Assembly (NCBI GenBank): GCA_977862235.1
Contig: OZ374562.1
Location: 434,001-498,000 of the forward strand
Source of the DNA: Dudresnaya verticillata
Lineage: Eukaryota
Direction of reading: 5' to 3'
Length of the DNA: 64,000 bases
The notes under the pieces were generated by a model. It worked only from the letters and a program-made list of their open reading frames with translations, ran no database searches and had not been told where the DNA came from. Shown in pieces: positions 10,246 to 35,802 of this stretch (the first letter of the stretch is position 1; each line of letters starts with the position of its first letter). The position numbers and the translations under genes were made by a program.

Positions 10246-11026
10246 CTTGGCTGGCGCGCTACTCTACACACTGTACAGATACTCACTAAAAATAGAGAAT
10301 AAATACTACAAATACTCCGCTACGGTTGGTGCGTTACACTGCTGTACAGCAATGCGTACCAGCGTACAGCAATGCGCACAACATCCGACACGGTTACACG
10401 TTTCCAGATTGTAAGGAAGGACCTTTTGGGTCTCTTGTGAACTCAAAGAGTGCACTCAATGAGAAAGCCGCAGCGCGGGTGCCTGGTAGCGGTGGTAGAG
10501 CGGGAGGAACCCAGAGGGTAGACGAGGGCACGTAACCTGATTGGAAGCACGATACTGAAGGTAGTTCACTGGGCGGGCAGTTAACCGGGCACGGGTGACA
10601 AGTGTGCTGTGGTGCCGATAGCTTGGAGACGTAGTTGGGGCCGGAAGGTGCTTACCTTTACTGTTCAGTGACCGCTACGGGAGATACCCTTATATGGTAT
10701 TCCGACTGTCGGGCAGCACCCCTCATACTGGGCTATATACACGCCCCCTATCCTAAGCTATAATTTCTAAAATAAATAGGCAGATACTAAGCTACTGACC
10801 TGCAGGATGACACTTGGACCAATCATGGGCTACCAATCTTGTCCCTGCTGGCGCCCTATAGGTAACGCTATTTCTGCGCATACAGCGGGCAGAGGGCCCA
10901 CTTTGTGACTTCTGTAAGCCCTTCACTGTATTACACAGATCATCAGCGTGGCGTACTGCCACATCATCCGTTACGGTTGGCTCGCCGTCGGCGTGCCGCA
11001 TGCGCGCCACAGCTCACTTCACCACA
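10246..11026 (-). repeat. 3' LTR remnant of element B (interrupted by solo LTR 10410-10935)
   Basis: Ends CTCACTTCACCACA as at 42001-42014; ~90 bp near-identical to ~41785-41870; adjacent PPT. Confidence 0.8.
10410..10935. repeat. Solo LTR, 526 bp
   Basis: TGTAA...TTACA termini; 5-bp TSD CAGAT (10405-10409 / 10936-10940). Confidence 0.85.
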
Positions 11027-11165
11027 GACCCCCCTCCTTAAATGGCGCCACGTCCTCGGGCGCCGACCGTCACGGATCTCTATCGCTTCCCCACCCACGC
11101 ACACACACAACCGATACGGAAGTGTTCTCATCAGTCCCTTCCCTTTCTTGCGCGCTTCTCCCACC

Positions 11166-12776
11166 ATGTCAGGGGAGAAGACCAAGCGCTCACCGTCGCC
11201 CTTTCAACCGACACGGCGTTCCCGCGCGGCTTCCACGACTAGGGCGCAGGGCGCGCTAACCGTTACGGATGCTTCGACTCAAGCACCGGCTTCTTCCTCG
11301 GCGGCAGCGACGCGACCCGCAACGGGCGGTCGTACGAGCGTTGCCGTGACGGAACCTTCATCGGCTCCATCAGCGGGCCGAGGTTGGTCTGTCTATGATC
11401 CGAATCGGTTTGCTGCGAGCGCAGCCACAAGGACCGCGCTACCAGGGAGTGTAGCGACCCACCGTGACGGAGAGGCGCCAACCAAGGACCGCGATGATGC
11501 ATTCCGTCGTGATGGCGAGGAGCTCAGCTTGGCAGACCTACCGGCCATTCCGTTACGGGCACCATCGACACCGGTATCGACGCCGAGTCGTAGGATGGTG
11601 GCGAGTCCACATCCTTCATCAAGTACACCGAGACGGATGCGTGGGCCCCCGCAAATCAATCATCCTGCACCGGGGCCTTGGTGGCCGGTGGTTCATACCC
11701 GTGACGGAGAGGGCCCTGCCCCGAGTGGTTATTGGCCGGGGCACCACTTTGATCATCGCGCGAGGCGCCCGGCTAGAACCGATGCGGAGAGGGCAAAGAT
11801 TAAGCCCCCGATGACGGCGGACTACTTCATCGAGAAGTATCCAACCGTCTTGGAAGCAAGAAGGTATAAGGCCGTCATGGCGCAACCCTTCAAGGCGAAT
11901 CAACGCATTGGCGTTGTTCCGAATCGGAGAGAATTTGTATGGCAAAGCCGATGGGTGCATGGCTATTGTCAAGCGCGGACCTCTACCGTTTCGGATTTGT
12001 TGTGGTATCGCTGCCATGGGGAGGTAGGATATACCGCAAAGGTGAGTCACCTGTTGGCCAAAGGTTTCCGTCTCCGGGGTGCGCCGGTCGGAGTGCAATT
12101 CATTTGCTTCGACCGCCCCTATGACCAGTCGGTATATTGGTTCAGCTATGCCGATGGGTGGAAGGACGATGCCGCGACGGAACACCGTTTGCGAACTCGT
12201 TCCCGTCACGGAATGCAAGTTGGCTCGCCAATCCTGCATACTTGGAACACTAAGGAGTTCTTCCATCTTCCGTATCGGGTGCGTCGTGAACTGTACCTTA
12301 CAGCTCCGTCATGGTGGGATCGTTATGAGGTGACCCGTTGGTTGTCTGTCCCCACACCTTCTGTCGTGGCATACTTCTCGGCGGACCTACTCACCGAACG
12401 GGAGTGGAATCACAAACATCCGAACGGAGAGCGCCCCCCGAATCAAGATCAGCTCGATGTATTGTGGCGCATCTTCCGATCGGAATGGGCAATGCTAGTG
12501 CTCTTCTCGTGGCTCCAGGTGGCCTATTACGGAGTACGGAATAATACCAAGTTAGCCGACTGGCGATGCTTCCCACGGGATGAGGATGACCTGCCCGGAG
12601 GAGACTGTGGCCGTATTTTTCAACTTCCCGTAACGCTGATCGCCCTCATTCGCCAAGTCGGCGTAGCCGATTTGGTGACGGGGTCGTCGTATCCTCTGCA
12701 TCGGGTTGAGCGTCTTTTATCCGTACACGGAGAGCAGGATTGGCAACGCACTCCGGGCTTCTTGGGGTATAGTTGG
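11166..12776 (+). pseudogene. Element B antisense accessory ORF, part 1 (537 codons)
   Basis: ATG 11166 (MSGEKTK); open until the element A insertion; rejoins 25930 in frame after removing A and one TSD copy. Confidence 0.8.
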
Positions 12777-13614
12777 TGTGGCATAGCTGTAAGACCAGCT
12801 GTGCCACGCACGCGCAGCTGTAAGACCAGCTGCGCCACGTGTGCACTGCTGTGCGCACGCTGTCAGCCGGTGGCGCCGAAGCCCCGCTGAACTGTAAGGG
12901 AGTGCGCAGTGGCGCCCACGTGTACACGCGTTCGCGTGTGACACTGAAACTCCCATGTAATTTCTACGTTTATTGTTTTGTGAGTGTACAGCACCCTCTA
13001 GTGTAAGCGGCGGTCGAACGCCCTGCTGTCCCGCGCGCTGTGCGCACGCACTCCGGCGCAGAGCCGTTGAGTGCGTGACACGCGCGCGCGCACTCCGGCG
13101 TCGAGCCGTTGAGTACGTGTGGACCGTTCCGCCTACGCGCGCCCCCGGGTTACCGTTACCCGTACGCGTCGACGCGTGTTGGGGCGCGCCGGCGCACCTC
13201 CCGGGTTGGTGCCGCCGCAGGCCCTGTAGTATATCTAGTAGTCGCCCCTCTGGGCTGCAGTAAACCAAGGCAAGCCAGCCTACGCCAGGCTTGCCCTTTC
13301 TGCTTTGGGTTTCTTTCCCAGTCCTTCGCCCTACGGCTTCCCTCTTTCCCTAGCCGTCTAGGCTTTCCTTTTCCTTTCCCTACCGTCGGCTTCGTGCCTC
13401 CCCACGACGGGGACGCAGGGATCCGGCCGCTGCCGCCCGCGTACGGTACGCCCCGTGCGCGCTCAGGCTTCGACGCCGTTGATCCGCGACCGTCGACGGC
13501 GCGCGCGGCCGACACCACCGCTCTACCACCACAGCTACCACCCTTCGACGGGTCTTGGCGCGACTGATCGACCAGCGCAGCTAGACGTCAGTTCGACCTG
13601 ACGTCTATGCCACA
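12777..13614 (+). repeat. 5' LTR of element A
   Basis: Direct repeat of 25087-25924. Confidence 0.97.
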
Positions 13615-13615
13615 C

Positions 13616-13631
13616 TGGTCTCCCGACCTAG
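13616..13631 (+). promoter_or_regulatory. Primer-binding site TGGTCTCCCGACCTAG (probably tRNA-Tyr)
   Basis: 1 nt after the LTR; the first 10 nt are complementary to a ...CGGGAGACCA tRNA 3' end as in yeast tRNA-Tyr. Confidence 0.75.
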
Positions 13632-13682
13632 AAGTCGCAGAAGACCCTATCACCTCTCGCGTCGACGCGATCGAGGCCAAGA

Positions 13683-16097
13683 ATGCCGCCGCTACCTACT
13701 TCGGCCGCTGCCGGTCCGGCAGACGCCGCGGCAGGTGAAGTTGGCGGTCGACGCACTTCCTTGCTGAGTAACGTCGGCGTCTCAGGAGCTCCCCTAGAGG
13801 AACCGCGCATCGAGCGCAGGGCGGCTATAGCCAAGGCCCTAGGAGGGACAGCGGTCTCTGCGACCGACCTCCAGCTACTCTACGAGGAGACGATGGACTC
13901 CTTTTCGGAAGTGTACGACACCTTCATGGCCTCAGTCGCAGACGCACGGGCACAAGGTCAACGTGACCTGGAGTCGCTTCGACGCGGAACTCTCGCCTCC
14001 GTCGAGGAAGGATTAACCCGAACTCAAGGGCTCCTCGACGAGCTACGCCAACGCGTTGAGTTGATTGAGCACGCACCGGCGCGGTATGACCGACGGGCGC
14101 CTAGCCCGTCGCCGGGGCGGAGCCGTCCTCCGCGATCGCCGTATCAAGCGGATCCGGTTCGCGAACTGGCCAAAGCCCTCCTCGCTGAGCGTCGTGCTCA
14201 GCGAAACCCTTTTTCTCCACCGGCCTCTCCGCCTAGGAGTGGGCAAGGGTCCCCTCGCCCTACAAGAGATGACGACCCTTCTACGGGGTCGACCCCAAGC
14301 TACTACGACGCGCCCTCGACGGGCGCGGAGTTGGAGGGGCGTCTAGCCCCTCACCACACGAAGGTCCCGTGTCGGCCTACTGGCACTGGGGGCCATTGAT
14401 GCCGGGCGTCGAGCCGCCGAGCACCTTGGTCCCCGAATTCGCGAAGGCGATCGACTACCGCTCCTATCGTCTAGACGACATAAGGCAGCGGGACAATCAG
14501 CAGCAAGTCTGCAATGGCAACACCGCCAAGATTGTCAGCCGGATGAAGGCTCTCATGCCGCGGCTAGATCGCTACGACGGCAAGGAGCCCATCCGCTTTC
14601 TTGGCGTGCTTAGACAGCTACGCCAAGCCTTCAACGGCGTCGGCCTGTCGGAAGGCGCAGCGGCGCGAGTGGTGTCCTGGTTCCTAGACGGAACGGCATC
14701 CCAGGTGTATTCGAGTCACCTTTTCTCGGGGGTCCGGACGACTAGTCGCGGCACCCCCCCGTGCTGGGCCTCGGTGGTCAATACCCTCGTCGAGAGGTTC
14801 GTCACCGACGACGTGATCGCCGACGCGCACGACCGACTGACCACCGCCCGGCAGTGGGACGCCGAGTCAGAACTCGAGTTCGCCTCTCGTCTAGAGGGCT
14901 ACGCCGATGACTGTGCCGGCGTCTACTCCGACGAGAACCTGACGCACCAGTTCTTGCGTGGTCTGCTTCCGACCACCCGACCCGCAGTAGCGGAGAAGGT
15001 AAGGCAGATGCCGATGGTCGAGCAGACCAACTTCAGTACCGTTCGTCGGATCGCCCACAGTCACAACCTACCGCGCCCGCATGGCCAAGGCGTCGACGCC
15101 GGCCATCGTTTCGGGGCGCGGTAGGGGAAGCAGTTCGCCAAGCGGCCGCACGCTGCTTATCGAGGCGCCACACACACCCGATAGGGAAGCGGCCTTCGAC
15201 GGCACGATGTTGGTGGCGCCCGATGACGATGGTTTCGAACCCGTCATGGTCGTGCCCGCGCTGTCGACAGCCGGGGCGGCGCAAGCCGAGGAGACCCTCG
15301 ACATCTCAGGACGCATCGACGCTGTCCTGCCGAGGAGGATCCCTCCGCTCACACCGGCGCAAGAGGCCATGGCCCGCGCTGTCACCCCTGATCGACAGGG
15401 GTGGTACATCTGCTGGTTCTGCCGAGAACTTGGGCACATCATGTACTCGTGCCCATTCCTGACTAAGGAACAGCAGTTGTACTGCGCGTATGCGAACTGC
15501 AGCCATAGACTGGAGACGCAGCCGCACGCGCGCAACAACTTGCAGCAGCTCATCGACGAGCGCATGCCGGCAGGCGCCAAGGCAAGTTACCCCGCAAGAC
15601 GCTTCGACGCGCAGCGGGGTGGGGCCCGACGCTTCGACGATAGGGGTCCCCCGCAGCGCTTCGACGCGCAAAGGTATCGCGGGGAGCCGCGACAGTACCG
15701 CGGGGATCGTCGAGATCCGCGCCGCGAATACCGAAGGGCAGACGTCCCGCGGTTCCTCACTCGCGACAAGCGGGTCGGGTTTGACGACCAAGCCGGTCGC
15801 CAACCTCGGGCGTCGACACCCTCGAGGCCCGACCCGCAGCGCGAACTGCTTCGGGCAGTGATGACCGTGCAGGAGCACACCGGTCTAGCAGCCGACGAGT
15901 GGCTCCCGCGAGCGCTCGACGCGCAGAGCAAGGGCGAGTCCGCCAGGGGGCAGGTCGAGCAGCCCCCGCTCCTTTTTGACACGCCGCCGCGATCGACGCG
16001 AGGCGCCGGCCCGGCCCCTAGCCAGCCAATGGGATCCGAGGAAGATAGCTCGGATTCCGAAAATAATTTTGACCGGGTCGAACCGGAAAAAGAGTAA
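13683..16097 (+). pseudogene. gag: gag of element A, split by two frameshifts (13683-14399, 14369-15124, 15081-16097)
   Basis: DYRSYRL...YDGKEPI capsid-like region shared with B gag; CCHC knuckle CWFCRELGHIMYSC. Confidence 0.85.
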
Positions 16098-16111
16098 AGG
16101 CGGCGCCGTTC

Positions 16112-19100
16112 GTGCGGTCGCGCGCACCGTCTCTCTCTACCCCAGACCCACCATCCTCCGCCAAGCCGTCGGCGGTAGGCAGGACTTCGAGTCCCAACCA
16201 ACGAAAGACCCCCTCGCCAAGCAGCGCTGAGGGGCCGCTTTGCGACGAGCCGTCGAAAGCCACGCGCTCCAGGCCACCTTGGCCCCCGCGGCGTCGACGC
16301 AAGGGACAGGCACGACGCCGAGCGCATAGGGGTCCGTCGACGGATCCCGAGGCACCCTTCGCTCCACGCGAAGGTGCCATGGCTCTCTGCGTCGACGCGG
16401 AGCCGGCCACTACCCCCGACGGGTATGTGTGCCTCTTCTCCTCGGAGATATACCGCGTGTCTGGGTCGCTAGGCGCTGACCCAGGGGTAATGATACCCCA
16501 CACCATTGCGGTGGACACCGGCTCCGGGTACAACCTCATCGCGAAGCGGGCGCTGCCGCCCGGATGGGATCAGCACGCGGCGGCGATGGAGTCGACTCCT
16601 CGCCTCGCCGGGGCTGATAAGACCCCACTGAGCCTATCAGGGGTGGCGCACCTCTCGATGAGGTTGGGGAACACGACGTTCCGCGTGCCATTCATAGTGG
16701 CAGACACCTTGGCCGTCGAAGCCCTGGTGGGAACGCAGTTCCTCAATGCGCACGTGCGAGGCATCGACGTCGAGTCGAAACGCCTATCGCTCCGACGTGG
16801 GGGCTCGGTGCCCCTCCTCAAGCGCAGTAGGCCTGCCGAGGACCGCAAGCCGTCATCGAAGCCGAAGAACCCGTCGACGGGTTTGTCGAGGAAGCACCAG
16901 AGGGAGCTCCTCGACTGGGATCACGACACCCACACCATCCGCCTCTCTAGGCAGATGGTGCTCCCAGCCTATTCCCAAAGGCTCGTCTCCGTGACTTCAG
17001 GAGCCAGTGGGCTGATCCACACCGAACCCAAACCCTCGTTGCAGTTCCGCCACGGCGTGAGACTTACCAACGGGGTGCACGACGTCGAGTGGATGCGACC
17101 TTTCGGGGTCATCGTCGGGAACTTCACCGACAAGCCTCGGACCCTGCCTAAGGGTACCGTTGTCGGCTACGCGGTTAGGAACCCGGTGGCACTGATAACT
17201 CCAGACCGCAAAGTCGCGGAGGAGTTTGGGCGGGTGATGAACATCACCACCCTACCACCACGGGGGCAGAGGCCCCCGGTCAATCAGGGTGCCGTGGAAC
17301 CATCCACCTCGCCGTCGACGGCGAAGAGCACCGACGCCCAGCCGCTGCAGGGCGCAGCTACCGCCGCAGCGAAGGCCAACCCGTCCGTCGAGGACTGGGA
17401 GGCGCAGGTCAACCTCTCGTCTATCGAAGACGAGGTGACCCGCACGGAGGTCCTCTCCATGCTCAGGAAGCATCAGTCCATGTGGGACGGGAGGCTGGGC
17501 ACTATTGCCGCCACCCGACACCACATCGACGTGGAACGGGGCACTCGCCCCATCCGCTCCATGCCCTACCGACAGGGCCCTGCCATGCGCAAGCTGGTGC
17601 AGGACGAGGTGGATAACATGCTTCGTGCAGGGGTTATCGAACCCGCCACCTCGGAATGGGCATCGCCAGTCGTCCTGGCGCCCAAGAAGGACGGCACACT
17701 TAGGTTTTGCGTGGACTATCGACGTCTCAACACGAAAACACTAAGTGATGCGTACCCTCTACCGAGGATGGACGACTGCATCGACAGTCTAGGCGACGCA
17801 GCCGTCTTCTCGACGTTGGACTGCAACGCGGAGTACTGGCAAATCCCTGTCGCAGAGGCTGACAGGGATAAGACCACGTTCACTTCGTTCTTAGGGACGT
17901 TTCGCTACTTGCGAATGCCCTTCGGGCTGAAGAACGCCCCCGCGACTTTCCAGCGCGCACTAGACATCATCCTCAGCGGATTCCGATGGCAGTGCTGCCT
18001 GATCTATCTAGACGATGTGATCATTTTCTCGCGGTCGATCGCGGAGCACGTTGGTCATTTAGACCAAGTGCTGACTCTGTTGCACAAGGGAGGAGTATCC
18101 CTGAAACTGAAGAAGTGCCACTTCTTTCAGTCACGCGTTGGCTATCTCGGCCACGTCATCGAACCGGGGAAGCTACGCATGGCGCAGACGAGCAGCGACG
18201 CTTTCCGCCATGCGCAGTTCCCGACCTCCCTGACTAAGGTGAGGTCGTTCCTCGGCGCGTGCAATGTCTATCGCCGCTTCCTGCGCAACTTCGCGAAGAT
18301 CGCGCGTCCTCTGACGAACATGACCCGCAAAGACGCGGATGTGGATTTCGACAATCCAAGCGCCGACGCGCTCGAGGCATATGAGACGCTCCGAGCGAAG
18401 CTCATATCGCCCCCTATCCTACGGCTCCCCAAGACGGGTAGACCCTACGTCCTCGATACGGACGCATCGGCTTATCAGCTCGGATGCGCCCTACTGCAGG
18501 AGCAGGAGGACGGCCAGCTACACCCAGTCGGGTACTGGTCCTACTCGCTCAACTCGGCGGAACGGAATTACTCCGCCACTGAGCGTGAGTGCTTCGCAGT
18601 GGTGTGGTCGATCACAACCCTGCGGCCATACATCGAAGGCACGCGATTCACGGTTCGAACCGATCACGATGCGCTTCGATGGCTGATGTCGCTGACCGAC
18701 TCTTCGGGTCGACTGACCCGGTGGCGCCTGCGGCTCGCGGAATTCGACTTCCAGATCGAGTACCGCCCCGGGCGGGTACACCAAGTCCCGGATGCCCTGT
18801 CCCGCTTGGTTCGACCCCAGCGGAAACAGGAGGAGGTTGACGACGACGTCCCTACCTTTGACCCCCCGGCGGTCGACCGCCCGCAAGGGGAGTCCTCGGC
18901 TGAGACGCCGGTGGCACGTCCGGGTACAGAACCCGCGGCTCCCGTCTTGGTAACCACACGCTCGCGGTCCAACGCATCTACGCGTTCGGCCCCAGCGCAG
19001 CCCGTTCCGAAGCCAGTCCGTGTAAGCATCACCGGCACCGCGCCCAAGACGGGCGCGGCAGATGAACCCCCGGACTTGGCCGACGAAGCGGCGTGGGACG

Positions 19101-20821
19101 ACACCGACGACGTCGACCTCTTCGATCTCCTCCGCGTCGACGCGGGCGACGAGCCATCGGACTTGACGTCCGTGGAGCCAGTGAAGCTCCCTTCACCTAT
19201 TTCCGTCGAGGAATTTGTGGACGCGCAGCGGCACGACTCCTTCTGCCAGACCGTACTGGCCAGGCAGTCCCGTCGACGGGATAGCCATTTTTACGAGGAC
19301 GGGGATGGGCTTCTATGCCGCCATCATCCGGTCATAGCTTCGCTAGACCAGATAGTGGTGCCCGAGTCGTTACAGCCTCGGCTGCTCACGCTCGCGCACC
19401 ACTCCCTCCTCGCGGGCCACCCAGGGCAGAACAAGATGTTCTATTCCCTGCGTGAGACCTACTACTGGCCGCATATGGCGGCCAGCATCGCCATGACAGT
19501 AAGAAACTGCAGGCACTGTGCCCGTAACCGCATTCGACTGCGCAGACACCTTCATAGACTGAAGCTGTTCCCGGCCACCAGGCCGCTGGAATCCGTTGCT
19601 ATCGACATACTGGGCCCCTTGCCCAAGACCAAGTCTGGTCGCAAATTCCTCGTCATCATGACGGACCGCTTTACCAAGCTAACGCAAGTCGCGCCTCTGC
19701 GCACCATTACGGCTTACAACGTCGCAGTTGTCTTCTGTGAACAGTGGGTCTTCCACTACGGGCCGCCTAGGTCCTTGCTTTCCGATAACGGAAAGCAGTT
19801 CACATCGAAGTTCTTCCAAGCCGTCTGCCGGTATTTGGGTTTGAACAACGTGTTCACCTCCGCGTATCACCCCCAGTCGACTGGGCAGGCTGAACGCTAC
19901 AACCGGACCGTCATGGCCATGTTGAGGAACTACGTCAACGATCACCAAAACGATTGGGATCGCTACGCCTCTGCGTTGACGTATTCCTACAACTGTCACG
20001 TGCACCGCTCGACGCGGACGACTCCATTCAGCTTAGTGCTGTCACGGCCTCCGCCGGAATTTACTAAGTTTCACTCGGCGGTCGACCGCCCGAAACCTAG
20101 TGAGGATGTCCGAACGGACTTCCTCAAGCGGTTAGACACCGCTATGGGCCTGGCTTCTGCCGCCCTGGCCAAAACGCAGAGGCGTTACAAAAAGGACTTT
20201 GACCGACGGGTCCGGAAGGTCAACTCCCGCATCAAGGCCGGAGACTACGTCTTCATCGACGCAACTGACGGGGTGACGAAACCACCGAAGTTGCAGAGCC
20301 CGGCCATCGGGCCTTATCGCGTGCTGCTCAACGACGAGCGCACGTTGTTTATCGACAGAGACGGCCTGGTCGAACGCATCGCAGCGGACCGAGCCGTCTT
20401 CTGTCCCCCGCCTCTGCGGGAAGACACCGCGCGTCGAAGCGCGTACTTGCCCACAGCTAACGATCTCGCGTCCAAGGCCGTCGACGGCCCGCGGTTCGTG
20501 GTGGACAAGGTACTTGACTATGGCACGGCCGAAGACGGCACGATGCTCTTTCAGGTCAAGTGGACCGGCTACTCTAAGCCCACTTGGGAACCTCGATCCC
20601 ATTTGCCGGAGGAGATGATGAGCCAATACTTCCGCGCGAAGAAGCGTCGGAAGGACTCTGGGCTCGACGCCCCATCCCCTCCACTCGCCCCCTCGGCGGG
20701 GCGCCTCGTGCTTAAGGAGGGGGCCCCAGGCATTCTTTGCCTCAGGCATTCCTTGCCTGTTATTACCCTCATCCAGGCATCCTTTGCCTTTTTCCCAGCG
20801 ACGGGAACACGTGGGGCCTAA
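16112..20821 (+). CDS. pol: pol of element A: PR-RT-RNaseH-IN-chromodomain (in -1 frame relative to the gag end)
   Basis: VDTGSG protease; RFCVDYR, MPFGLKNAP, YLDD; DTDAS RNaseH; HHCC plus DDE integrase; GPY; VDKVLD..VKWTGY..TWEP chromodomain. Confidence 0.97.
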   Translation: MRSRAPSLSTPDPPSSAKPSAVGRTSSPNQRKTPSPSSAEGPLCDEPSKATRSRPPWPPRRRRKGQARRRAHRGPSTDPEAPFAPREGAMALCVDAEPATTPDGYVCLFSSEIYRVSGSLGADPGVMIPHTIAVDTGSGYNLIAKRALPPGWDQHAAAMESTPRLAGADKTPLSLSGVAHLSMRLGNTTFRVPFIVADTLAVEALVGTQFLNAHVRGIDVESKRLSLRRGGSVPLLKRSRPAEDRKPSSKPKNPSTGLSRKHQRELLDWDHDTHTIRLSRQMVLPAYSQRLVSVTSGASGLIHTEPKPSLQFRHGVRLTNGVHDVEWMRPFGVIVGNFTDKPRTLPKGTVVGYAVRNPVALITPDRKVAEEFGRVMNITTLPPRGQRPPVNQGAVEPSTSPSTAKSTDAQPLQGAATAAAKANPSVEDWEAQVNLSSIEDEVTRTEVLSMLRKHQSMWDGRLGTIAATRHHIDVERGTRPIRSMPYRQGPAMRKLVQDEVDNMLRAGVIEPATSEWASPVVLAPKKDGTLRFCVDYRRLNTKTLSDAYPLPRMDDCIDSLGDAAVFSTLDCNAEYWQIPVAEADRDKTTFTSFLGTFRYLRMPFGLKNAPATFQRALDIILSGFRWQCCLIYLDDVIIFSRSIAEHVGHLDQVLTLLHKGGVSLKLKKCHFFQSRVGYLGHVIEPGKLRMAQTSSDAFRHAQFPTSLTKVRSFLGACNVYRRFLRNFAKIARPLTNMTRKDADVDFDNPSADALEAYETLRAKLISPPILRLPKTGRPYVLDTDASAYQLGCALLQEQEDGQLHPVGYWSYSLNSAERNYSATERECFAVVWSITTLRPYIEGTRFTVRTDHDALRWLMSLTDSSGRLTRWRLRLAEFDFQIEYRPGRVHQVPDALSRLVRPQRKQEEVDDDVPTFDPPAVDRPQGESSAETPVARPGTEPAAPVLVTTRSRSNASTRSAPAQPVPKPVRVSITGTAPKTGAADEPPDLADEAAWDDTDDVDLFDLLRVDAGDEPSDLTSVEPVKLPSPISVEEFVDAQRHDSFCQTVLARQSRRRDSHFYEDGDGLLCRHHPVIASLDQIVVPESLQPRLLTLAHHSLLAGHPGQNKMFYSLRETYYWPHMAASIAMTVRNCRHCARNRIRLRRHLHRLKLFPATRPLESVAIDILGPLPKTKSGRKFLVIMTDRFTKLTQVAPLRTITAYNVAVVFCEQWVFHYGPPRSLLSDNGKQFTSKFFQAVCRYLGLNNVFTSAYHPQSTGQAERYNRTVMAMLRNYVNDHQNDWDRYASALTYSYNCHVHRSTRTTPFSLVLSRPPPEFTKFHSAVDRPKPSEDVRTDFLKRLDTAMGLASAALAKTQRRYKKDFDRRVRKVNSRIKAGDYVFIDATDGVTKPPKLQSPAIGPYRVLLNDERTLFIDRDGLVERIAADRAVFCPPPLREDTARRSAYLPTANDLASKAVDGPRFVVDKVLDYGTAEDGTMLFQVKWTGYSKPTWEPRSHLPEEMMSQYFRAKKRRKDSGLDAPSPPLAPSAGRLVLKEGAPGILCLRHSLPVITLIQASFAFFPATGTRGA

Positions 20822-21960
20822 GCCCCACGGTAAGGGCATGAATTGCGGCTGCCTAAGCCGGCGGCCCAAGCCGAAAGCACCCTGCGCCAATGGCAGAGGC
20901 CAAGGAGCAGGCGTGCTCTGCGAACTGCGCATCGCAGGGACGCTGGGCACGACGCCCCTCGCTACTACCGGCTCGACGCCCGGCAGTAGCGACGTCCCGC
21001 TACGCGGAAGACAACCCGCACCGTCGGGGGTTGTCTGACCAACGCCGACGCGAAGCCGCGCACAGATGGCGGAGGGAAGGCGTCGACGCCCCCTTCACCA
21101 ACGCCGCGCCGCGGTCGCGCGTAATATTCGGCCAACAACCACCGCCCTGGCTCCTAGCCGGGCGGGGTGCCAACGCACACAGATCCCACGTCGAGGTGGG
21201 GCGCCAGAGCCAAGAAGGCCGGCGTCCTTCGAGTTGCACCGCTGCGCTTCGACGAGCGAGCGGCACAACCACCGCGACGGTGGGAAGGCCGGGGGCACCG
21301 CGGCAGACGACCGGCCCCTGCCAAATACAGGCGCGCGCTTACCCATATTTGGGACGCGTGCGCCCCACAAGCGCAGAGGCGCAGATTTGTGTTCAGGCTA
21401 CAGTGTCTACTATAGCCAAAACACAAATAATTGGGAACGCCCAATGGGGTTCGACACCCCCGGGCCTCTGCCCACTCATCCAGGGGCATCGACGCCCCTG
21501 GCCTGGGTTGGCTGCACAAGCCGCCGCCACGCTCGTGGCTACTCCCGGCGGAGGGGACCCCGTCGACGCGGTCACCTCCGGCGCAAAGCCGCGACGCCAC
21601 TAGGGGCACCCGCTCCGCGCTGACGCTCCGCGTCGACGCGGTGTTGCGCGCGCTGGCAGCCCCCTGTGTGGCGTCGACGCCAGCACTGCGGACCGCCACC
21701 CGCTTCGACGTGGGTCAGGCACAATAGCACCCATGAGGAGGTGGGGCGTCGAAGCCCCACCACCTGCTACAGCGAGCATAGCTCGCACGCAGCCGCGCGG
21801 TCGAAGGCGCAGCTGTTGAAAACGCGTCGACGCGGACCGAAGTCTTCGCCCACCCCTTGCCCTTTTATGAACCAGACACGCAGCGGCGGTCTAAAAACTA
21901 GCGAGGCGATCGACCGCCTCGAACTAGGATGCTTCTACAGCATAAGCCACTACGGCATAA

Positions 21961-24754
21961 CTACTGGGCGGCCTCGCCCCCAGAACCCACGCCGGGAAAG
22001 GCGGGCGCAGAGCCCGCTGCCCCCGGCGCCGCGGGCACGTAGCCCTCAACCACCATTGTGATTGCCGCTGGCGCTGGTGGAAGACCCCCGGCGGGAAGCG
22101 GAGGCGCCGAGCCTCCGTACGCCACTGCGCCCCCACCTATGGGAGCTGCAGGGCGGTAAGGGCCCATCGACGGGCCCCTCACTTGCGGAAGAACCGCTTG
22201 CTGTGGCACGACGCCTGCAGCACTGGGCGGCGCGCCTGCGCCGCCCTGAGCGCCTGGGTACATCAGTTGCCCGGCGCCTTGCCAAGGGGCAGCCGGGCCA
22301 GAAGGGCCCGGAGCGTACGACTGCATCGGCTGCATCGACGCATACCCCGTCGGGGGCGGCTGGTACTCCTCGCGAAGCCTCTTGCGCGCCGGCGCATAAG
22401 ACATGCGCTGGACTTCCCCGCGGAGCCTCTGCACCTCGCGGGCAAAGCCGTCCCGCTCGTCGCGGTATCGAACCGCGACGGCATTGGAGGCGTTGACGTC
22501 CTCCTGCAGCGCCACTGCGCTCGATGCCAGGGCCTGCAGGAGCGTGCGTGTCGACACGCCTTGCCCGACGCGCGCCAAGGAGGCCGCGCTGCGTACAGTC
22601 GGATCGGCCCAGACTGCCGCACTCACCGCCTCGTCCAGTGGGTCGACCACTGGAGGAGGTGGGACATAAGCCACCGCCGGCGACCCAGACGGTTCCGGCG
22701 GGGGCTGGTACACCTCAACGGCAGCGGCCGGAGGGGCGCGGGCCGTCGACGGCCCCGCAGCAGCCGGTCCGCCGACTGCCGCAGGGGCGGCTGGCGCACG
22801 ACGCGCAGACGCCCTTGCGGGCGGCGGGATGTATGACTCGGTCTCCGCCGCCATGACGGCCGCGGCTGACCCAGGGTTAGCACCCACGCCACGACGGCGA
22901 CGACCGGCGCGCTCAGTGCGGGCCATGTCGGCCACCGAGGCGAACCCGGAGCGCTCGACGCGCTCCCGCCGGTCACGTGCGCCACGATTGCGCTGGATCT
23001 TATAGAGGCCCCCTATCTCTGGCAAGAAGCCACACACGAACGCGTCGACGCGTGAAGAGAAGTGACGCCTCCGCGTGTGCTTCTCCGTTGCCGCAGCCAC
23101 TCGGCGGACTACGCCGAGTAGCTCGCCGAACCCAAAAGACGTGCCATCCGAAGGACGGAGCAAGTCTGGGAAACACGGCCTCTCGCTTGACCAGCCGGTC
23201 GCGAGGAAATTAATCAGACGGTCGTCGAAGACCCAGCCTGTCCCCTTCGCGAGGAGCTCGCTACAGTAGCGGCGGCCCACCTCGAAGGCGTATTCATCTG
23301 AGCGCCTAGCCAGGAGCTCACGACGAGCAGCTACGCGACCGACTGTCGCGTAGTGGAAATACCGGTCTACGGTTATCCACGGGATAGTGAATCCCGATGG
23401 CGTCTCCCGGTGGGAGTACCACTCCGCTGATGGGAACCCGGCCGCGTCGAGCGCCGGGTGCAACTTGCACCCCTTTGACGGGCGTCCTTCGCCCGGGGCC
23501 TTGCACACGTCCCAGTCCCGCTCCCCGAAGCACACCCCAAAGAGGCGGCGCGCAGAGTCGGCATCGGCCAGACGGTGCGCGAGGTCCACGGGCTCGTCGA
23601 CGGGCACCGTGCGCATCTCTGGGATGGTGGCAGGCAGGGGCGGGGCCCACTCATCGGCGGGTGTCAGGAAGAGGGCATCGGCTGCCCTGTCCACCCGCCG
23701 AAGCTCCTCAAGGGACGTAAGAAACGTCGCCGGGTAACCCTAACGGCGTGAGCCAGACTATGGCGTCCGCCGGGAGGAAAGCGGCATAGGCTGCCGCCCC
23801 TCCGTCCACGCTCGCGTGGGCCACCCTCAGGAGCCGCCGGACGCCTGCCCGAGGCTCCTGCAGCCCGCGCCACTGATCCAGCGGGATTTGGTGGCGCGGC
23901 GCCCCCCAGGCGAAGACCGTCTCTTTCGGGGGCGCGTGCTGTCCAGGGGGCGCCTGGCCCATGAGGGGCGGTCCGACTGAGACCGACACCCCAACAAGAG
24001 GCACGACGGGCGCAGCGGTGGACTCACCCACGCCCGCGGCCTCCCCCTCTGCGTTGGCAGAGGCCACGGGAGACGGCGTCGGGACCGTCGACGGCCCCAA
24101 GCCACTAGAATCGCGCGGCACAAAGGGTGCCGCCGCTGCGGGGACTTTCCCCGACCCTGATGGCGTGGGTGACCTCGACCGACTCAGGTCGAGCACCCTC
24201 GCCACCATCGGCACCGCGGAGCGCGAAGGGTGCTCCGCGGGTGCCCCTCCTCGCGTCGACGCGGGTTGATTGCTGTGAGCCGTAGGCCCTGCGCGAGGCG
24301 GGCCAGTCGGCTGAAAGAACCGAGCCGCCGCTACTGGGCGCGGGGCGGCAGAGGCCGCCCCACTCGGGTCCTTCACTCTCTTGCCCTGCGCCGCAGCAAG
24401 GGCCACCGCCTCTGACCAGACGTCAGCGGCGGGCGTTGGGGTGGGGTTGGCGTCGACGCCACCCGCCCCGGCGGACGAAGCCGGCGCAGCAGCCCCGGCC
24501 TTGCCCAGCGCACCCGTCGATGGGGGCGCTTCTTCTGGCGCAACCGTCGAAGGTTGCGCCTCTTCTGTAGCGACCGTCGAAGGTCGCTCTGCGGTTGGCG
24601 CGGCCGTCGAAGGCCGCGTCTCTCCGCCAGCCGGCGCCCTTGGCACCGGCTCGGCAGGCCCACCCCCTACGACTGCCTCAGCCGAGGAGGTGGGCTTGGT
24701 AACCGGCGCCCCCTCGGCGGGGGCGCCGTCCGCGATCGGTTCGCGTGACTCCAT
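21961..24754 (-). CDS. Element A antisense accessory ORF (~930 aa; one frameshift near 23710-23740 joins 23708-24754 and 21961-23694)
   Basis: Two long abutting ORFs antisense to pol, between pol and the 3' LTR; Ala/Pro-rich ends, aromatic core and coiled coil. Confidence 0.7.
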
Positions 24755-25074
24755 CGCCGCGTCGACGCTGGCGATGGGGGAGGAAGTTGAGAGGGTCGAA
24801 AGCTTGGCGCGTATGGCACTGGTCGACAGGCAGCTGTACGCGTGGGGCAGGGAGTGTTGGCGGTCGTGGTGAGCGATGACCAGACCACCCACCCCTCGGA
24901 GCCGCAGAGGCGGCTCCCTAAATAGCCCGTCGCGGCTCAGCGCGGGCACACCCGACGTGGCATCGACGCCCGTCACCGACGGACGCCCGGGAGCCCGCTT
25001 GCCAATCCCGGGCGCCGTCTTGGCCACCCCACAGCGTGCGCGTTGTAACGGTCGCAACCGAGGCGTTCGCGCTT

Positions 25075-25083
25075 GAGGGGGGG
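25075..25083 (+). promoter_or_regulatory. Polypurine tract of element A
   Basis: GAGGGGGGG 3 nt before the 3' LTR. Confidence 0.8.
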
Positions 25084-25086
25084 TTG

Positions 25087-25924
25087 TGTGGCATAGCTGT
25101 AAGACCAGCTGTGCCACGCACGCGCAGCTGTAAGACCAGCTGCGCCACGTGTGCACTGCTGTGCGCACGCTGTCAGCCGGTGGCGCCGAAGCCCCGCTGA
25201 ACTGTAAGGGAGTGCGCAGTGGCGCCCACGTGTACACGCGTTCGCGTGTGACACTGAAACTCCCATGTAATTTCTACGTTTATTGTTTTGTGAGTGTACA
25301 GCACCCTCTAGTGTAAGCGGCGGTCGAACGCCCTGCTGTCCCGCGCGCTGTGCGCACGCACTCCGGCGCAGAGCCGTTGAGTGCGTGACACGCGCGCGCG
25401 CACTCCGGCGTCGAGCCGTTGAGTACGTGTGGACCGTTCCGCCTACGCGCGCCCCCGGGTTACCGTTACCCGTACGCGTCGACGCGTGTTGGGGCGCGCC
25501 GGCGCACCTCCCGGGTTGGTGCCGCCGCAGGCCCTGTAGTATATCTAGTAGTCGCCCCTCTGGGCTTCAGTAAACCAAGGCAAGCCAGCCTACGCCAGGC
25601 TTGCCCTTTCTGCTTTGGGTTTCTTTCCCAGTCCTTCGCCCTACGGCTTCCCTCTTTCCCTAGCCGTCTAGGCTTTCCTTTTCCTTTCCCTACCGTCGGC
25701 TTCGTGCCTCCCCACGACGGGGACGCAGGGATCCGGCCGCTGCCGCCCGCGTACGGTACGCCCCGTGCGCGCTCAGGCTTCGACGCCGTTGATCCGCGAC
25801 CGTCGACGGCGCGCGCGGCCGACACCACCGCTCTACCACCACAGCTACCACCCTTCGACGGGTCTTGGCGCGACTGATCGACCAGCGCAGCTAGACGTCA
25901 GTTCGACCTGACGTCTATGCCACA
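25087..25924 (+). repeat. 3' LTR of element A
   Basis: Direct repeat of 12777-13614, followed by TSD GTTGG. Confidence 0.97.
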
Positions 25925-25929
25925 GTTGG

Positions 25930-26199
25930 GATGAGGACCGTGTCCTATCGGTGCCCCCGCTTAAGCCCGGAGTGGGTGAGCCACATTTCCTTCATCGAGA
26001 AGATCGGCGTCCGGAATGGTTGGCCTTAGAGGTGCAGGCCTATCGTGGTTATGCGCCTCGCCAAACACCAAGGGATGCGTACCGTGACGGTTTGGACGGG
26101 GCCGAAGATTGGGGGAGTTGTCAGGAGACAGCGGGGCGTTCGCGTGCAATCGACCCGCGCGATTCCGTTACGGTGAGGCAGCAAGAAGCTGGCCCCTTC
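25930..26199 (+). pseudogene. Element B antisense ORF, part 2 (90 codons)
   Basis: Reads ...GYSW|DEDRVLSVPPLKPG...EAGPF| in frame with parts 1 and 3. Confidence 0.75.
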
Positions 26200-27785: not shown

Positions 27786-27790
27786 CCTTC

Positions 27791-28783: not shown

Positions 28784-28858
28784 CGGTTTCAATTATGCCT
28801 CGACCTTAGCTTGCGATAAACATTGTGTGTTCTCACACACCAGCACTCCAACTGTCCG

Positions 28859-31800
28859 TTACGGCGAGTGACGTGTTGGATTAGCACGTCGCCGTGGCTT
28901 GCCCTTACCGGAGGTCTTTTTCTTTTGCTTCCAATACCGGTAGATGAAATTCTGCGGCAACTCCTCCGCGGGCTCAAAAGTGTCCTGATCCGGAGGGTAA
29001 CCATACCAGCGGACTTTATAGGTCATCCTAGTAGGTTCGTCGGGGTGACCGACAATCTTGTCGATCACATATTCCGTATCGGCTTGTAGAGGTTCCGCTC
29101 CGGAGGGTGTAATGCCCGCTGACGGCGTAGGCGTTACTGCCGTACCTTCTGGATGTGGCACTACTTCTCCTTAAACGGTTGATGGCCCGACAGGCGGCAC
29201 TGTTAAGGGCGCCGGCTGAACCGCAACTCCGATCGGAACTTTCGTGATGCGATCGATGCTTACTGGGATCAATACCCCTTCCTTGCGGAATGTAACCACA
29301 TTTTCCGTTGCGGATTCCACTTCATAAGGCCCCGTGGCTCGCGGAAGAAGTTGCTTCATTTCCTGAGCCACCTCGCCCACATTACCCGGTTTGCCTTCCA
29401 ATCGGTCCCGCTCACGGCGTTCGGCAGGCCGCAAGTTATGGGGCGGCCGGTCGACATAGACTTGATCTCCGCTACGGATTATGGGCCTAGAGCGCACCTT
29501 ACGGTCAAAACGTGCCTTGGCTTTTTGCTGAGCCACTGTCTGCTTAGTGCGCGCTGTCTGGAGCGCATACCGTAAACGGCTCATGGTGCTCCGCTTCTGT
29601 AACACCGGGGTCATACGCCCTTCCGTAACGGTTTCTTGATGCTCGGCAGGAGCCCCTCGTACAACAATGTCCGATGGGTGGCGTGTCAGCACCAAATCAA
29701 ATGGCGTTGTTTCCGTAATACGGTGTACCTGCATGTTGTACGCATACGTCAACGGCTGCAGGTACAAATCCCAATCGGAGTGATGATCCTCAACGTAATG
29801 TCGCAAACGCTGGGCGATTGTCTTATTAAATCGCTCAGCTTGCCCATTTGTTTGCGGATGGTAGGCAGCGGTTAATAGGTGCCTGAATCCGAGTAAGGAA
29901 CACACCGCGTCAAAGAACTTAGCAGTAAACTGCGGTCCGTTATCGGATAGGACAAATTGGGGTGCGCCATACGCATAAACCCAAAAGTCCAGAAAGGCGT
30001 TAGCCACCACAACGGCTGTTGTTGTCCGTAACGGAATACAGCGCGTCAGCGTAGAGAACCGATCGGTTATTACCAGAACGTAGACATAACCCCGTTTTGT
30101 CTTCGGAAGTGGCCCGAGAATGTCGATAGCGACAAACTCCAAAGGTCCGCTAGCGGGGAAAAGTTTCATAAACCTTTGATTCCGAAAGCGGGTTCCCTTT
30201 GTCTTCACGCAGGAGCGACATGTCTGAACGGATTCAAATACATCGTTGGCCATATGAGGCCAATAATAATCCTGTCGGAGTGTATAATACATCTTATTTC
30301 CGCCTGGGTGGCCCGACATCAGGGTGTAGTGGGATAAATACAATACCCGTCCACGGAGTTTGCTTGGCATCACCTTCTGTAGAGCGCCATCCAATTGGGA
30401 CTTGCGTACCAAGAATCCGTTACGGTCATAGTCAAACTGTGATCCAGGGGAGCCTACCGTATCGGCTTTGAGACGACAGAAAGGGTCTCTGGCTTGGGCT
30501 TCGAGGAACTCCTCCCTGGTAATTGTCTCATCCTTAACGTCGGATTCTTGGATTACAGTAAACCGTGACGGTGTTGCGTCGGGCTTGTCAGGGGAGGCAG
30601 ATGCACTCCCACTGGCGAGCTCCACGGCGCATATTACGTTATTTTCCGTAGCGGTTTCTCGTGATGTAGCCCAATCGGTTAAATAAACTCCATGCTCATA
30701 TAATCCGTCGACGGTATTTTCGGCGACAAAGCAGGGTATCTCTTCATCCAAAGGTCTATTGTCACCGCCATCCGTTCGGAGTCGCGACATCCCATCGGCG
30801 AGTTGATGCTTAATTCCAGGACGGTATTGCACCTCAAATTGAAATTCCGATAGGCGGAGCCTCCACCTGGCTAGGCGGCCAGATGAATCTGCGAGGTTCA
30901 GGATCCACCGCAGGGCATCATGATCCGTTCGGAGAATAAACTTGTCACCATAAACGTAGGGTTGGAGTGTTAACATGCTCCAGACCACGGCTAAGCATTC
31001 CTTTTCGGTTGTCGTATAGTATTTCTCCGCATCGGTGAGGCTTCGGCTCCAATATCCAATAGGGAGGTGATCGGCATTCTGTTGTTCCTGCAGAAGGACA
31101 CAGCCGACTTGGTGGTCACATGCGTCAGTGTCCAACGTATATCTATATCCGTGACGGGGTAGAGCCAATATAGGTGGAGAGATAAGGCGTCTCTTCAGTT
31201 CCTCGAAGGCTTCACATTCCGTATCGGATAATATTCCAAACTCAAAGGGTGAGCCCTTGCCGGTTTTCTCATTTAGCGGAGCTGAAATCCGAGCGAAGTT
31301 GGGTACAAAGCGACGATACACGTTGCACATTCCCAAGAAGGATCGCAATTCCGTTTGGTTAGTCGGCGGCTTCGCGACCTTAACGGATTGGATATTTCGA
31401 TTATCCACTTCTAATTTTCCGGGACGGATAACATGCCCCAGGTATTGTACAGACGCGTTGAAGAAGTCACACTTTGACAATTTCAACGTTACCCCAGCGG
31501 ATCGTAAAAGCGTAAGGACTTCCTTCAGGTGGTGGAAATGTTCCGTAACGGTTTTTGAGTAGACCATTACATCGTCTAGGTAGACGAGGGCAAATTGCCA
31601 TTTAACCGTAGAAAGGATTATATCCACTGCCCGTTGGAAGGTTGCCGGTGCATTTTTCAATCCGAATGGCATTCTCCGAAAACGGTATAAGCCAAAATGG
31701 CTAGTGAAGGTAGTTTTGTCCCTTTCCTCTTCCGGAATCTCGACTTGCCAATATCCACTATTGCAATCCAGGGTGGTCAATACAGTAGCTTCCCCAAGGG

Positions 31801-33135
31801 AATCTATGCACTCATCCATCCTAGGCAAGGGATATGAGTCCCTAACCGTTACGGAATTGAGCCTTCTATAGTCAACACAGAACCGCATGGTGCCGTCCTT
31901 TTTTAGAACGAAAACCACGGGGCTGGCCCACTCCGATGAGGCCGGTTCAATTACCTTAGCGGAAAGCATGCGATCGATTTCTGTCTTTTCGAGATCTCGC
32001 TGCTTATGTCCGGCACGGTATGGGGCTTGATATACTGGCTTAGCTCCGGGAGTTAACTCGATGCGGTGCTTGGCAGCTGTAATGTTGCCAAGATCGCCAC
32101 TCCACATCGACTTATATTCCTCGAGTAGGGTTAAAATCCGTTTGTGGAGCGATGCTTCTTCTGTGCCGATCTGGACTTGATCCTTCCAGTCGGTAGTATT
32201 TGTATTTTCGGTTACGGGTTTGCTTACTTCCTTGTCGTGAGGGGAGATGCTGCTGGCCTTTTCGGAGGTAGGGTTAGAATTAAATGATTGAATAATTCCT
32301 CCCCCTCCTTAAATGGAGGTATACCGTCAACGGTAAAAATAGCAGATGGGGCAGCAGTAGCGAGGCCCACGACAGTAGATTTGGGCAACCGTACCGGCTT
32401 GTTAGAAAACTTAGAGACCCAGATCCGAAACGGTTTGTTTGGTACAACATCCATAATACCATTAGCCATTAATGTAAGGTGCTTAAAAGCCGGCTTTGGA
32501 TGATTTTGTAGAAAGCATAACCCACCCGTGGGGGTATTAACCGTTACGGTGGTTTGAGTCACAGGGGGAATAAGGGTAGATTTTGCTAAACGAAGTTTCT
32601 GAGAAACCGTAGCGTTAGAGAGAGGTGAGGGCTGTAGGGTTGCAGTGGTTCCCGTCTTCGGAATTTTGGCTTGACCAACAAGGGATACCGGTGGGTAATG
32701 ATGAAAAACAACTTTCCGTAACGGAGGGAGTATTGCCTTCACGTAGCGGTCGATGAAGGTAGTTCCCAAAATACAGGGAGCCGCCAAGTTCGCGACCACT
32801 AGAAAATGGACGCGAGCACGGAGCTCTCCGATACGGACGAAAAGTTGGATCTGACCAAGAGGGCGTATAGCGCGATTAGACGCATCCCGTAATGGAGGAC
32901 TGGATGCTGGGCGTATGAGTGGGAGCCATTGGCGCGGAAGGCGCCTGGCACTAATGAGATTGGGCCCAGCGCCAGAGTCCAAGACGGAGATTAAAGGAAG
33001 CATCACGCTATCTGTCCGTCCCACGGTAATTTGCATCTTGTAATTTTGATGTTGCATAAAGAAGATAGTATCATTGGTCTGATAAGCCAATGGGAGTTCC
33101 GTAACGGTATCTCGCCGATCCCCTGGCGGGTCCAC
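28859..33135 (-). pseudogene. pol: pol of element B: PR (32224-33135), RT-RH-IN (29171-32107), chromodomain (28859-29161)
   Basis: VLDSGAG; LDCNSGYWQ, YLDD, DTDAC, integrase core, GPY; YVIDKIV..YKVRWYGY..TFEP; one frameshift and one in-frame stop. Confidence 0.95.
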
Positions 33136-33349
33136 ACTCGCGAGAGGTGGAACGCCGTGAGGCGGGGATGGCGGCGCCCTAACGCATCCCCCTTGAGTTT
33201 TCCGAATTCAAGGTTGCACCAGTCGGATCCGCCTCCATGGGCTCGCGCAATTCTGCGAGTTCCACTCCGTCATGGTCCTCCACCGATAGTATCGGGGCAT
33301 TCCGTTGCGGAGGGGGCTTTTGCGGTCTGCCCCTATTCCCTTGCGGATT

Positions 33350-35659: not shown

Positions 35660-35786
35660 GATGCCTTAACATAACACAACGGTTGTTCTTGCTTGTCTAT
35701 CCAATATTCCGTAACGGGTTGTCGGTACAGCCGAATTCCTACCGTAGCGGATTTCGACGGCTGTTTCTTCCAACCGTGACGGTGTT

Positions 35787-35802
35787 CTAGGTCGGGAGAC
35801 CA
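35787..35802 (-). promoter_or_regulatory. PBS of element B (identical to the PBS of A)
   Basis: Reverse complement reads TGGTCTCCCGACCTAG, 5 nt from the LTR. Confidence 0.8.

Follow-up and report, generated by a model that had tools for sequence, protein, structure and literature searches.

The window (i.e., the whole 64,000-nucleotide stretch of DNA analysed) contains element A, a young LTR retrotransposon of the Ty3/gypsy type that has an extra antisense ORF, together with a related element, B, and a solo LTR (Table 1). The host lineage of A is likely a red alga. Pfam matches in A follow in the order gag, then RT-RNase H-integrase, and the integrase C terminus weakly resembles the chromodomain PF00385, which many homologs have, at E 5e-5 and 23.5 bits, under the 25.1 cut-off. 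The three-frame gag is broken either in this copy or in the assembly. An Rfam search of positions 12000-26500 gave 0 matches.

Table 1. Positions of elements A and B, their parts, and the solo LTR within the window
Feature	Position	Strand	Remarks
Element B antisense ORF, interrupted by A	10866..12776	+	Member of a large protein family; has CCG-N3-CGG
Target-site duplication GTTGG	12772..12776 (left), 25925-25929 (right)	+	
Element A, Ty3/gypsy LTR retrotransposon carrying the hairpin units	12777..25924	+	148 TCGA sites, 42 of them in perfect 4-pair units
5' LTR of A	12777..13614	+	838 bp, TG...CA; one mismatch vs 3' LTR; 6 units
Likely primer-binding site	13616..13633	+	TGG start two bases past LTR; role judged from position
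gag of A	13632..16097	+	Three overlapping frames 13632-14399, 14273-15124, 15003-16097; Retrotrans_gag lies in the middle piece
Open pol of A	16073..20821	+	1582 aa between stops; encodes RT, RNase H, integrase, and a weak chromodomain
Perfect 14-bp palindromic unit within the integrase HPQxxGQ motif	19872..19885	.	
Non-coding spacer	20822..21960	.	Densest in units (8.8 units per kb)
Antisense ORF of A, downstream piece	21961..23739	-	592 aa between stops; matches nothing in Pfam
Antisense ORF of A, upstream piece	23708..25273	-	Low-complexity; frame differs from downstream piece
Polypurine tract	25075..25083	+	
3' LTR of A	25087..25924	+	
Element B gag-pol	29171..35665	-	52% identical to A over RT-integrase
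Solo LTR	42888..43738	-	86% identical to A LTR; retains 2 perfect TCGA units and 2 CGTCGACG

The preliminary description had reported more than 20 exact copies of CGTCGACG in A, distributed over the LTRs, pol, the spacer, and the antisense ORF and scarce in B, with fewer than one expected from composition. Our counts bear this out: 26 exact copies occur in 12777-25924 and 29 in the whole window, the three outside A being one in B pol (30706) and two in the solo LTR. Nineteen of the 21 positions listed there are exact, two were off by one (24254, 24451), and five copies had been missed (21825, 23595, 24086, 25477, 25801). Leaving out the duplicate 3' LTR, 24 copies are observed against 0.45, 0.85, 1.4, and 5.9 expected under Markov models of orders 0 to 3, and 22 of these 24 lengthen to GCGTCGACGC or CCGTCGACGG, in keeping with the extension described earlier. 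The order-3 excess (P 2e-8) was obtained with a model trained on A itself, and self-trained models of orders 4 and 5 absorb much of it (12.4 and 16.1 expected). In A pol, 8 copies compare with 0.93 in synonymous shuffles, none of 500 shuffles reaching 8. A Markov or codon-usage origin of the word is ruled out by the order-3 model and these shuffles. Nor is the word equally enriched in host genes; the PP2C gene has 0 copies, and so does the copia ORF. The suggestion of little CpG decay also held where it was testable, i.e., between the LTR of A and the solo LTR, where C>T changes affected 14 of 210 CG and 18 of 327 non-CG positions (P 0.58). Nothing connects the word with restriction or methylation enzymes.

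The part of the preliminary description that must be revised is the notion of a fixed SalI-type word, since the arms vary and co-vary, the pair beside TCGA may mismatch, and other loops occur. CGTCGACG is the most frequent version of a 14-bp unit, dispersed through A, in which four exactly complementary, sequence-variable pairs flank a [G/N]TCGA[C/N] loop; the RT-RNase H and integrase cores hold no exact CGTCGACG, though the wider unit is found there. All four arm pairs are present at 38 of 140 TCGA sites, compared with a permutation mean of 2.0 (0 of 5000 permutations reach 38), which is a 19-fold excess at this loop word. Arm co-variation reaches 7 bp from the centre and drops to chance from the next pair outward, whereas the pair adjoining TCGA forms at 5 of the 103 non-GTCGAC sites. 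The same arm test revealed no such arms around ten other palindromic 4-mers. Some loops are 5 nt long, and a second loop word, AGAG/CTCT, is present in balanced orientations (7 and 8, respectively). Among 132 six-base loops, 37 end in GAC (10.4-fold), 30 start with GTC (11.5-fold), and 16 do both, the controls giving 1 and 2. In A pol, we found 14 perfect TCGA units against 0.5 expected, and TCGA itself is enriched (57 vs 39.8).

Units occur in both orientations in the LTRs, RT, integrase, spacer, and antisense ORF of A, at densities of 3.3-8.8 units per kb across ten regions, none of which is unit-free. Their spacing is random (CV 0.94 vs 0.97), which rules out even spacing; only 24547/24577/24607 resemble a short repeat, and a tandem-repeat origin was likewise rejected. 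At 19872-19885, the integrase HPQxxGQ position is Thr in A and Asn in 113 of 113 matching homologs. Rare amino acids are not in excess within units (45/924 vs 250/3688), so hairpins do not drive amino-acid changes in general.

Element B carries a fixed word, CCG-N3-CGG, in 85 copies (15 vs 1.7 in pol and 11 vs 1.7 in gag). We counted 53 CCG-N3-CGG and 0 of three co-varied forms in B, and no arm co-variation was found across the 85 sites; being fixed and lacking co-varied forms, the B word requires a sequence reader. Among related elements, perfect mini-hairpins with other loops were found in 55 of 88 close relatives and in 0 of 61 distant Ty3 loci, and related families differ in loop length and loop word. 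The TCGA unit occurs at 3.1 per kb in A and at no more than 0.67 in the other 150 regions. A FastTree tree of the relatives was used for grouping only; its hairpin-poor subclade contained no fixed spaced word above background. Viral contigs yielded 0 and 2 loci.

Comparison within subfamilies showed that, in independent pairs, four-fold arm sites changed 31 times in c17 (65.4 expected) and 17 times in c27 (31.0 expected). At pairs silent on both sides, 0 compensations were found in either subfamily, and loop inversion was rejected as the source of the two orientations, with 0 cases among 9,899 jointly perfect aligned hairpins. Silent-site arm conservation without compensations or loop inversions thus points to selection on the arms in these two subfamilies. 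In the independent-pair test, a hairpin-poor control gave a ratio of 0.71 (P 0.17), no weaker than those of c01 (0.81) and c89 (0.77). Selection is not evident for A itself, for which 15 of 187 arm sites and 74 of 641 other sites changed between its LTR and the solo LTR.

Many long loci of the clade carry an antisense ORF from one fast-diverging protein family, which is represented by 766 sequences in our set. The B piece matches the family profile at E 5e-27. A Foldseek comparison of the family model built on this piece (pLDDT 78.7) with PDB and BFVD gave nothing at E<=0.001 (best VIA Z 3.2), a negative that does not establish a new fold. No Pfam match was obtained for the family either, PF04195 included. 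The downstream antisense piece of A appears to bear a weak likeness to this family: it scores E 0.003 against the seed profile, 2.1 bits against a larger profile from which it was left out (five of 300 shuffles score higher), and an hhalign probability of 22%. It has no homolog at E<=0.001 among 7,990 candidates, its best Atlas match (0.75) is a lead only, and its single-sequence model is poor (pLDDT 42). Members of the family are also present in the hairpin-poor subclade (L004, L021, L028, L057), and the family's presence therefore does not predict a hairpin tag.

Of the readings considered, we find it likeliest, though tentatively, that the units are a family identity tag recognised on DNA by a candidate element-encoded protein. 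Each unit would fold into a mini-hairpin on either strand, either in single-stranded cDNA or as a protein-held mini-cruciform in the integrated copy, and the part recognised would be the loop ending in GAC. A CGTCGACG-type palindrome could then be the top word because GTCGAC presents a GAC-ending loop on both strands. More speculatively, the reader might be the antisense protein, Gag, or integrase, and it might give its own family's copies an advantage where many Ty3 families share a nucleus, for instance by preventing their silencing or through sorting of the family's cDNA, with tag and reader diverging together. Arm co-variation, strand symmetry, family specificity, and silent-site conservation in relatives argue for a self-tag, as do the Watson-Crick-only enrichment of A pol windows, the fixed word of B, the ordinary residue content of the units, the antisense ORF of many long loci in the clade, and the precedent of VANC proteins (the first and last described below). 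Against it stand the antisense piece of A, which does not rise above shuffles on the family profile, the occurrence of the antisense family in the hairpin-poor subclade, the lack of evident selection in A itself, the control ratio, no weaker than those of c01 and c89, the weak loop strand symmetry of c17 and c27 (r 0.10 and 0.39), the random spacing of the units, the compensations in c15, and the sense-strand folding of three relatives (both described below). In addition, four-pair stems are too short for unaided extrusion from duplex DNA. Whether red-algal Ty3 elements in general bear a per-family hairpin barcode of loop length and word, present on either DNA strand and read by a fast-evolving protein with a fold absent from PDB, is more doubtful.

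Dispersed packaging signals are known from single-stranded RNA viruses and hepatitis B virus, in which many short stem-loops with variable stems share a loop word and lie in coding sequence. The units of A might similarly be RNA stem-loops on the genomic transcript, giving Gag many scattered binding sites by which a family would package the RNA that belongs to it. Local RNA folds are predicted to form the stems (mean pair probability 0.67), A pol windows fold 3.6 kcal/mol lower than synonymous shuffles, and in L017, L030, and L089 folding is somewhat stronger for the sense strand. However, the viral signals act on one RNA strand, whereas A uses both loop orientations about equally, and the folding excess of A pol on the antisense strand equals that on the sense strand. 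G-U pairing is slightly favoured in the pooled set, where G-T windows exceed expectation 1.10-fold (z 2.6), but not in A: five-pair windows of A pol are enriched when all pairs are Watson-Crick (99 vs 37), and not with one G-T (37 vs 35) or one A-C (50 vs 48), and at TCGA sites G-T is not favoured over A-C (6 vs 7). We regard RNA packaging as unlikely. It is slightly less likely still that the hairpins have no element-encoded reader and instead protect RNA or cDNA, while single-stranded, against a nuclease, deaminase, or silencing pathway of the host, or lower mutation in stems, family differences being a matter of history. Slower arm change without compensation would also be expected if paired bases were protected, loops and stems vary widely in length in several relatives, where hardly any loop is preferred, and distant Ty3 ORFs have a weak perfect-stem excess (1.28-fold); yet a roughly two-fold protection does not yield the 19-fold excess tied to one loop word, nor does it account for the fixed word of B or for the different words of A and B in one genome.

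An improbable alternative is that the family's reverse transcriptase, when it switches template or folds back, creates short inverted repeats at words that it prefers, leaving a functionless mutational signature. Such copying would produce perfect stems of the kind seen, free of G-T and of strand bias; the long-stem group c15 shows 68 compensations among 81 double changes, and at 19872-19885 a conserved integrase residue has changed from Asn to Thr, which makes the palindrome there perfect. The doubly silent pairs of c17 and c27, the 9,899 aligned hairpins, and the residue content of the units all speak against copying, which also leaves the mostly unpaired position beside TCGA and the enrichment of the loop word itself unaccounted for. 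Finally, the words could be binding or methylation sites of a host factor, such as a transcription factor or a DNA methyltransferase acting at TCGA/CpG, and the words of A, B, and a third LTR family all contain symmetric CpGs. We consider this very improbable: a host dimer reading duplex DNA does not make the arms co-vary through all four types of pair, CpG-biased decay was not found, and the units continue through RT and integrase.

The proposed tag bears on family self-recognition among the dozens of related retrotransposon families in a genome. Known family tags, i.e., VANC motifs and Sirevirus RM boxes, are fixed words in non-coding DNA, whereas the putative tag proposed here would be a geometry plus a loop word that spans RT and integrase codons, differs between neighbours, and is kept at silent sites in relatives. 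Its three candidate readers include the large antisense family, which is confidently modelled and lacks a structural counterpart in PDB and BFVD. The literature searched yielded no hairpin code of LTR elements that is shared across a lineage and symmetric between strands, and such a code would hold interest even if its cause were protection or mutation.

Sirevirus RM boxes are repeated motifs of plant Ty1/copia elements, accompanied by LTR palindromes, whose function is unproven (PMC2829016, PMC4728375); one that is listed is CGGTCGACCG, and a cis-regulatory role has been proposed (PMC2829016), which would suit a host factor. Like the units of A, they are high-copy, family-specific, dyad-symmetric, CpG-rich words with hairpin potential in an LTR retrotransposon. 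They are near-fixed, however, and cluster in LTRs and ahead of the env-like gene, whereas the arms of A vary and co-vary and its units, in a Ty3/gypsy lineage, extend over RT, RNase H, and integrase. VANC proteins have been proven to bind family-specific motifs of their own VANDAL DNA transposons (PMC5735166). These systems share with A and B the many-copy family words, the extra element-encoded protein, and the coexistence in a genome of related families whose words differ, but VANC motifs are non-palindromic, non-coding, and spread as tandem repeats, while the words of A are dispersed singly, largely coding, and structure-dependent. No homology between the antisense family and VANC was found, nor any Pfam, PDB, or fold match. 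Retand/Grande-type Ty3/gypsy elements have an antisense ORF of unassigned function between pol and the 3' LTR (PMC11963269) and resemble A in gag-pol, a long 3' internal region, and the antisense ORF. They are non-chromoviruses with TRP28 (PF04195), whereas A combines an antisense ORF lacking a PF04195 match with a weak integrase chromodomain.

The palindromic 8-mer CGTCGACG occurs in 29 exact copies in the window, and 26 of them lie within 12777-25924, i.e., in the Ty3/gypsy LTR retrotransposon termed element A. A preliminary description had listed 21 positions, of which 19 are exact and two are shifted by one, and its claimed excess over composition was borne out. With Markov backgrounds trained on A itself and the duplicate 3' LTR left out, 24 copies were seen versus 0.45, 0.85, 1.4, and 5.9 expected under orders 0, 1, 2, and 3, respectively (order 3, P = 2e-8). 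Orders 4 and 5 expect 12.4 and 16.1 copies, these models being fed by the motif itself. In A's pol, synonymous shuffling yields 0.93 copies versus 8 observed, a number reached in none of 500 shuffles. The excess persists at third order, and host genes do not match it: the neighboring PP2C gene (only species-named homolog, Pyropia, 53%) has no copy, nor does the copia ORF. The Pyropia homolog of PP2C, together with the Gracilariopsis chorda members of the clade's antisense protein family, suggests a red-algal host. The pattern is real, but it is broader than the 8-mer originally described.

Our data show that the sequences flanking TCGA in A are variable yet mutually complementary. Watson-Crick pairing at pairs 2, 3, 4, and 5 beyond TCGA was found at 90, 79, 89, and 67 of 140 sites (permutation means 57, 42, 50, and 40), and all four pairs were complementary at 38 sites (mean 2.0; 0 of 5,000 permutations), while pairs 1 (42 versus 49) and 6 (42 versus 36) are at chance level. 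The unit therefore spans 14 bp: a six-base loop enclosed by four base pairs of variable sequence. No comparable arm pairing was seen at ten other palindromic 4-mers. We also found five-base loops TCGAC/GTCGA (7 and 7) and a four-base loop, AGAG/CTCT (7 and 8). The six-base loops total 132; GAC stands at the end of 37 and GTC at the start of 30, with 16 having both (reversed controls, 1 and 2), so that one loop end is favored on either strand. Since GTCGAC offers this end on both strands, the palindrome heads A's word list.

As had been claimed for the 8-mer, the units spread through A's parts: all ten regions hold 3.3-8.8 per kb (RT-RNase H, 4.7; integrase, 6.7) at random spacing. They end at A's borders: A holds 42, the related solo LTR 2, and the remaining 50 kb 1. 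A's stems show no preference for G-T over A-C: five-pair windows in pol were perfect in 99 cases (37 expected), with one G-T in 37 (35) and one A-C in 50 (48), and where just three of the four arm pairs at a TCGA site were complementary, the mismatched one was G-T in 6, A-C in 7, and other in 20. A has a polypurine tract and is inserted within the antisense ORF of the related element B (52% identity over RT-integrase).

Features of the window, with positions where assigned
Feature	Position	Strand	Remarks
A LTRs			838 bp each, one mismatch between them
A target duplication			GTTGG
A PBS-like site	13616-13633		sequence apparently common to A and B
B primer-binding sequence	~35790-35807	-	see A
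A gag			split over three frames
A pol			open, 1582 codons; RT, RNase H, integrase, weak chromodomain
A antisense ORFs, two	21961-25273 (filled)	antisense	
B	10400-12776, 25925-26800, 27520-35829, 41364-42887		85 CCG-N3-CGG, loop mostly TNA-like; folds far below shuffles on both strands
B antisense protein	11820-12773 (P0224-P0373)	+	unnamed family
Copia element	35830-41363		young, lies within B; its 563-bp repeats share 99.8% identity; lacks A's and B's words
Third, LTR-like family	26800-27520, 43830-46400		CG[T/C]C-N3-G[A/G]CG units; four-pair stems with three-base loop 3.9x
Repeats	55800-62650		~1-kb direct and inverted, tangled around copia pol fragment; include 1,034-bp inverted repeat with 74-bp gap
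ORFs	4857-6131, 7122-8282	-	425 and 387 aa; no Pfam match

Of 160 related loci fetched, 149 offered 2 kb or more of analyzed sequence; these were scored for hairpin excess, defined as z >= 5 for perfect four-pair inverted repeats at any loop length of 3-8. This excess was found in 55 of 88 loci with RT identity of at least 47% and in none of the 61 below. Grouping on the RT tree matches loop length and loop word: three bases in the L001 group, four in the L017, L027, and L089 groups, six with central CG in L084, and a broad range, combined with long stems, for L015 and L083-L088; one subclade, the L004 group, is hairpin-poor. The TCGA unit is specific to A (3.1 per kb; next highest of 151 regions, 0.67). 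In the 19 of 91 ORFs with z >= 5, perfect stems are enriched 2.76x (inflated by that selection), three pairs plus G-T 1.10x, and three plus A-C 1.05x; the excess is weak (1.28x) in distant Ty3 ORFs. B lies at the opposite extreme, with 53 CCG-N3-CGG in 8.3 kb and no GCG-CGC, ACG-CGT, or TCG-CGA version there, and its 85 words show no arm co-variation. L031, distant from B on the tree, likewise has CCG-N3-CGG (20 versus 4.7). A's closest relatives, L083-L094, sit on contigs in bacterial genome bins and are likely mis-binned algal DNA.

Using non-overlapping pairs and base matching, we found that arms evolve about half as fast as other four-fold silent sites in two groups (31 changed versus 65.4, P = 9e-8; 17 versus 31.0, P = 2e-3). 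Only these stand clear, since two further groups had ratios of 0.81 and 0.77 and a hairpin-poor control had 0.71 (9 versus 12.7, P = 0.17). At doubly silent pairs, one-sided changes numbered 26 versus 69 and 11 versus 50, with zero compensations (non-independent all-pairs counts), a result not expected from repeated re-copying. In the long-stem group, 68 of 81 double changes were compensations (likewise non-independent all-pairs counts). Among aligned hairpins, 9,899 were jointly perfect, 1,043 of these with loops differing in at least two places, and no loop inversion was seen. Rare residues are not in excess within units (45/924 versus 250/3688); at one striking site, the perfect 14-mer 19872-19885, A has Thr where all 113 matching homologs (120 examined) have Asn. 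In the sole comparison available for A, its LTR against the solo LTR, 15 of 187 arm positions and 74 of 641 others changed, without CpG bias, in line with the little CpG decay proposed earlier.

In the literature searched, which took in few subscription papers, we found no report of such a hairpin pattern, which we regard as a variant of family-specific transposon motifs. Sirevirus RM boxes are likewise family-specific, high-copy, and dyad-symmetric; however, they are near-fixed and limited to the LTRs and env linker (PMC2829016, PMC4728375), whereas A's arms vary and its units also occur in RT and integrase. VANC proteins are described as binding family motifs within non-coding tandem repeats (PMC5735166).

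As for mechanism, we tentatively propose that the units would act as a family tag that is recognized on DNA. Pairing that is perfect and shows no G-T preference, along with the both-strand loop preference, is as expected for DNA of either strand, and the different words of two related elements sharing one genome favor a family tag. A role as RNA packaging signals, for which the dispersed signals of viruses offer a comparison, appears rather unlikely, even though the stems form in predicted local RNA folds, the sense strand folds better in three relatives (L017, L030, and L089), and loop strand symmetry is weak in two groups. Protection of paired bases is unlikely and template-switch mutation still more so; each explains part of the pattern, yet neither accounts for the loop word of A or the fixed word of B. 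That the units are host-factor sites is highly improbable, as arm co-variation would go unexplained.

Gag, integrase, and the antisense protein are candidate readers of such a DNA-level tag. An antisense ORF follows pol in many long loci of the clade, and these ORFs form one family, without a sequence match in Pfam or PDB. B's ORF belongs to it (E = 5e-27), and the model of B's protein is confident and helical (pLDDT 78.7, pTM 0.81), with no structural match found. A's ORF aligns to the family's W-E-P-G-Y pattern but scores no better than shuffled decoys (hhalign, 22%), and the family occurs in the hairpin-poor subclade too, so that the antisense protein counts as no more than a candidate. Retand elements share this antisense layout, although their protein carries TRP28 (PMC11963269). 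The family comprises 766 representatives at E <= 0.001, including members in Gracilariopsis chorda (one cluster).
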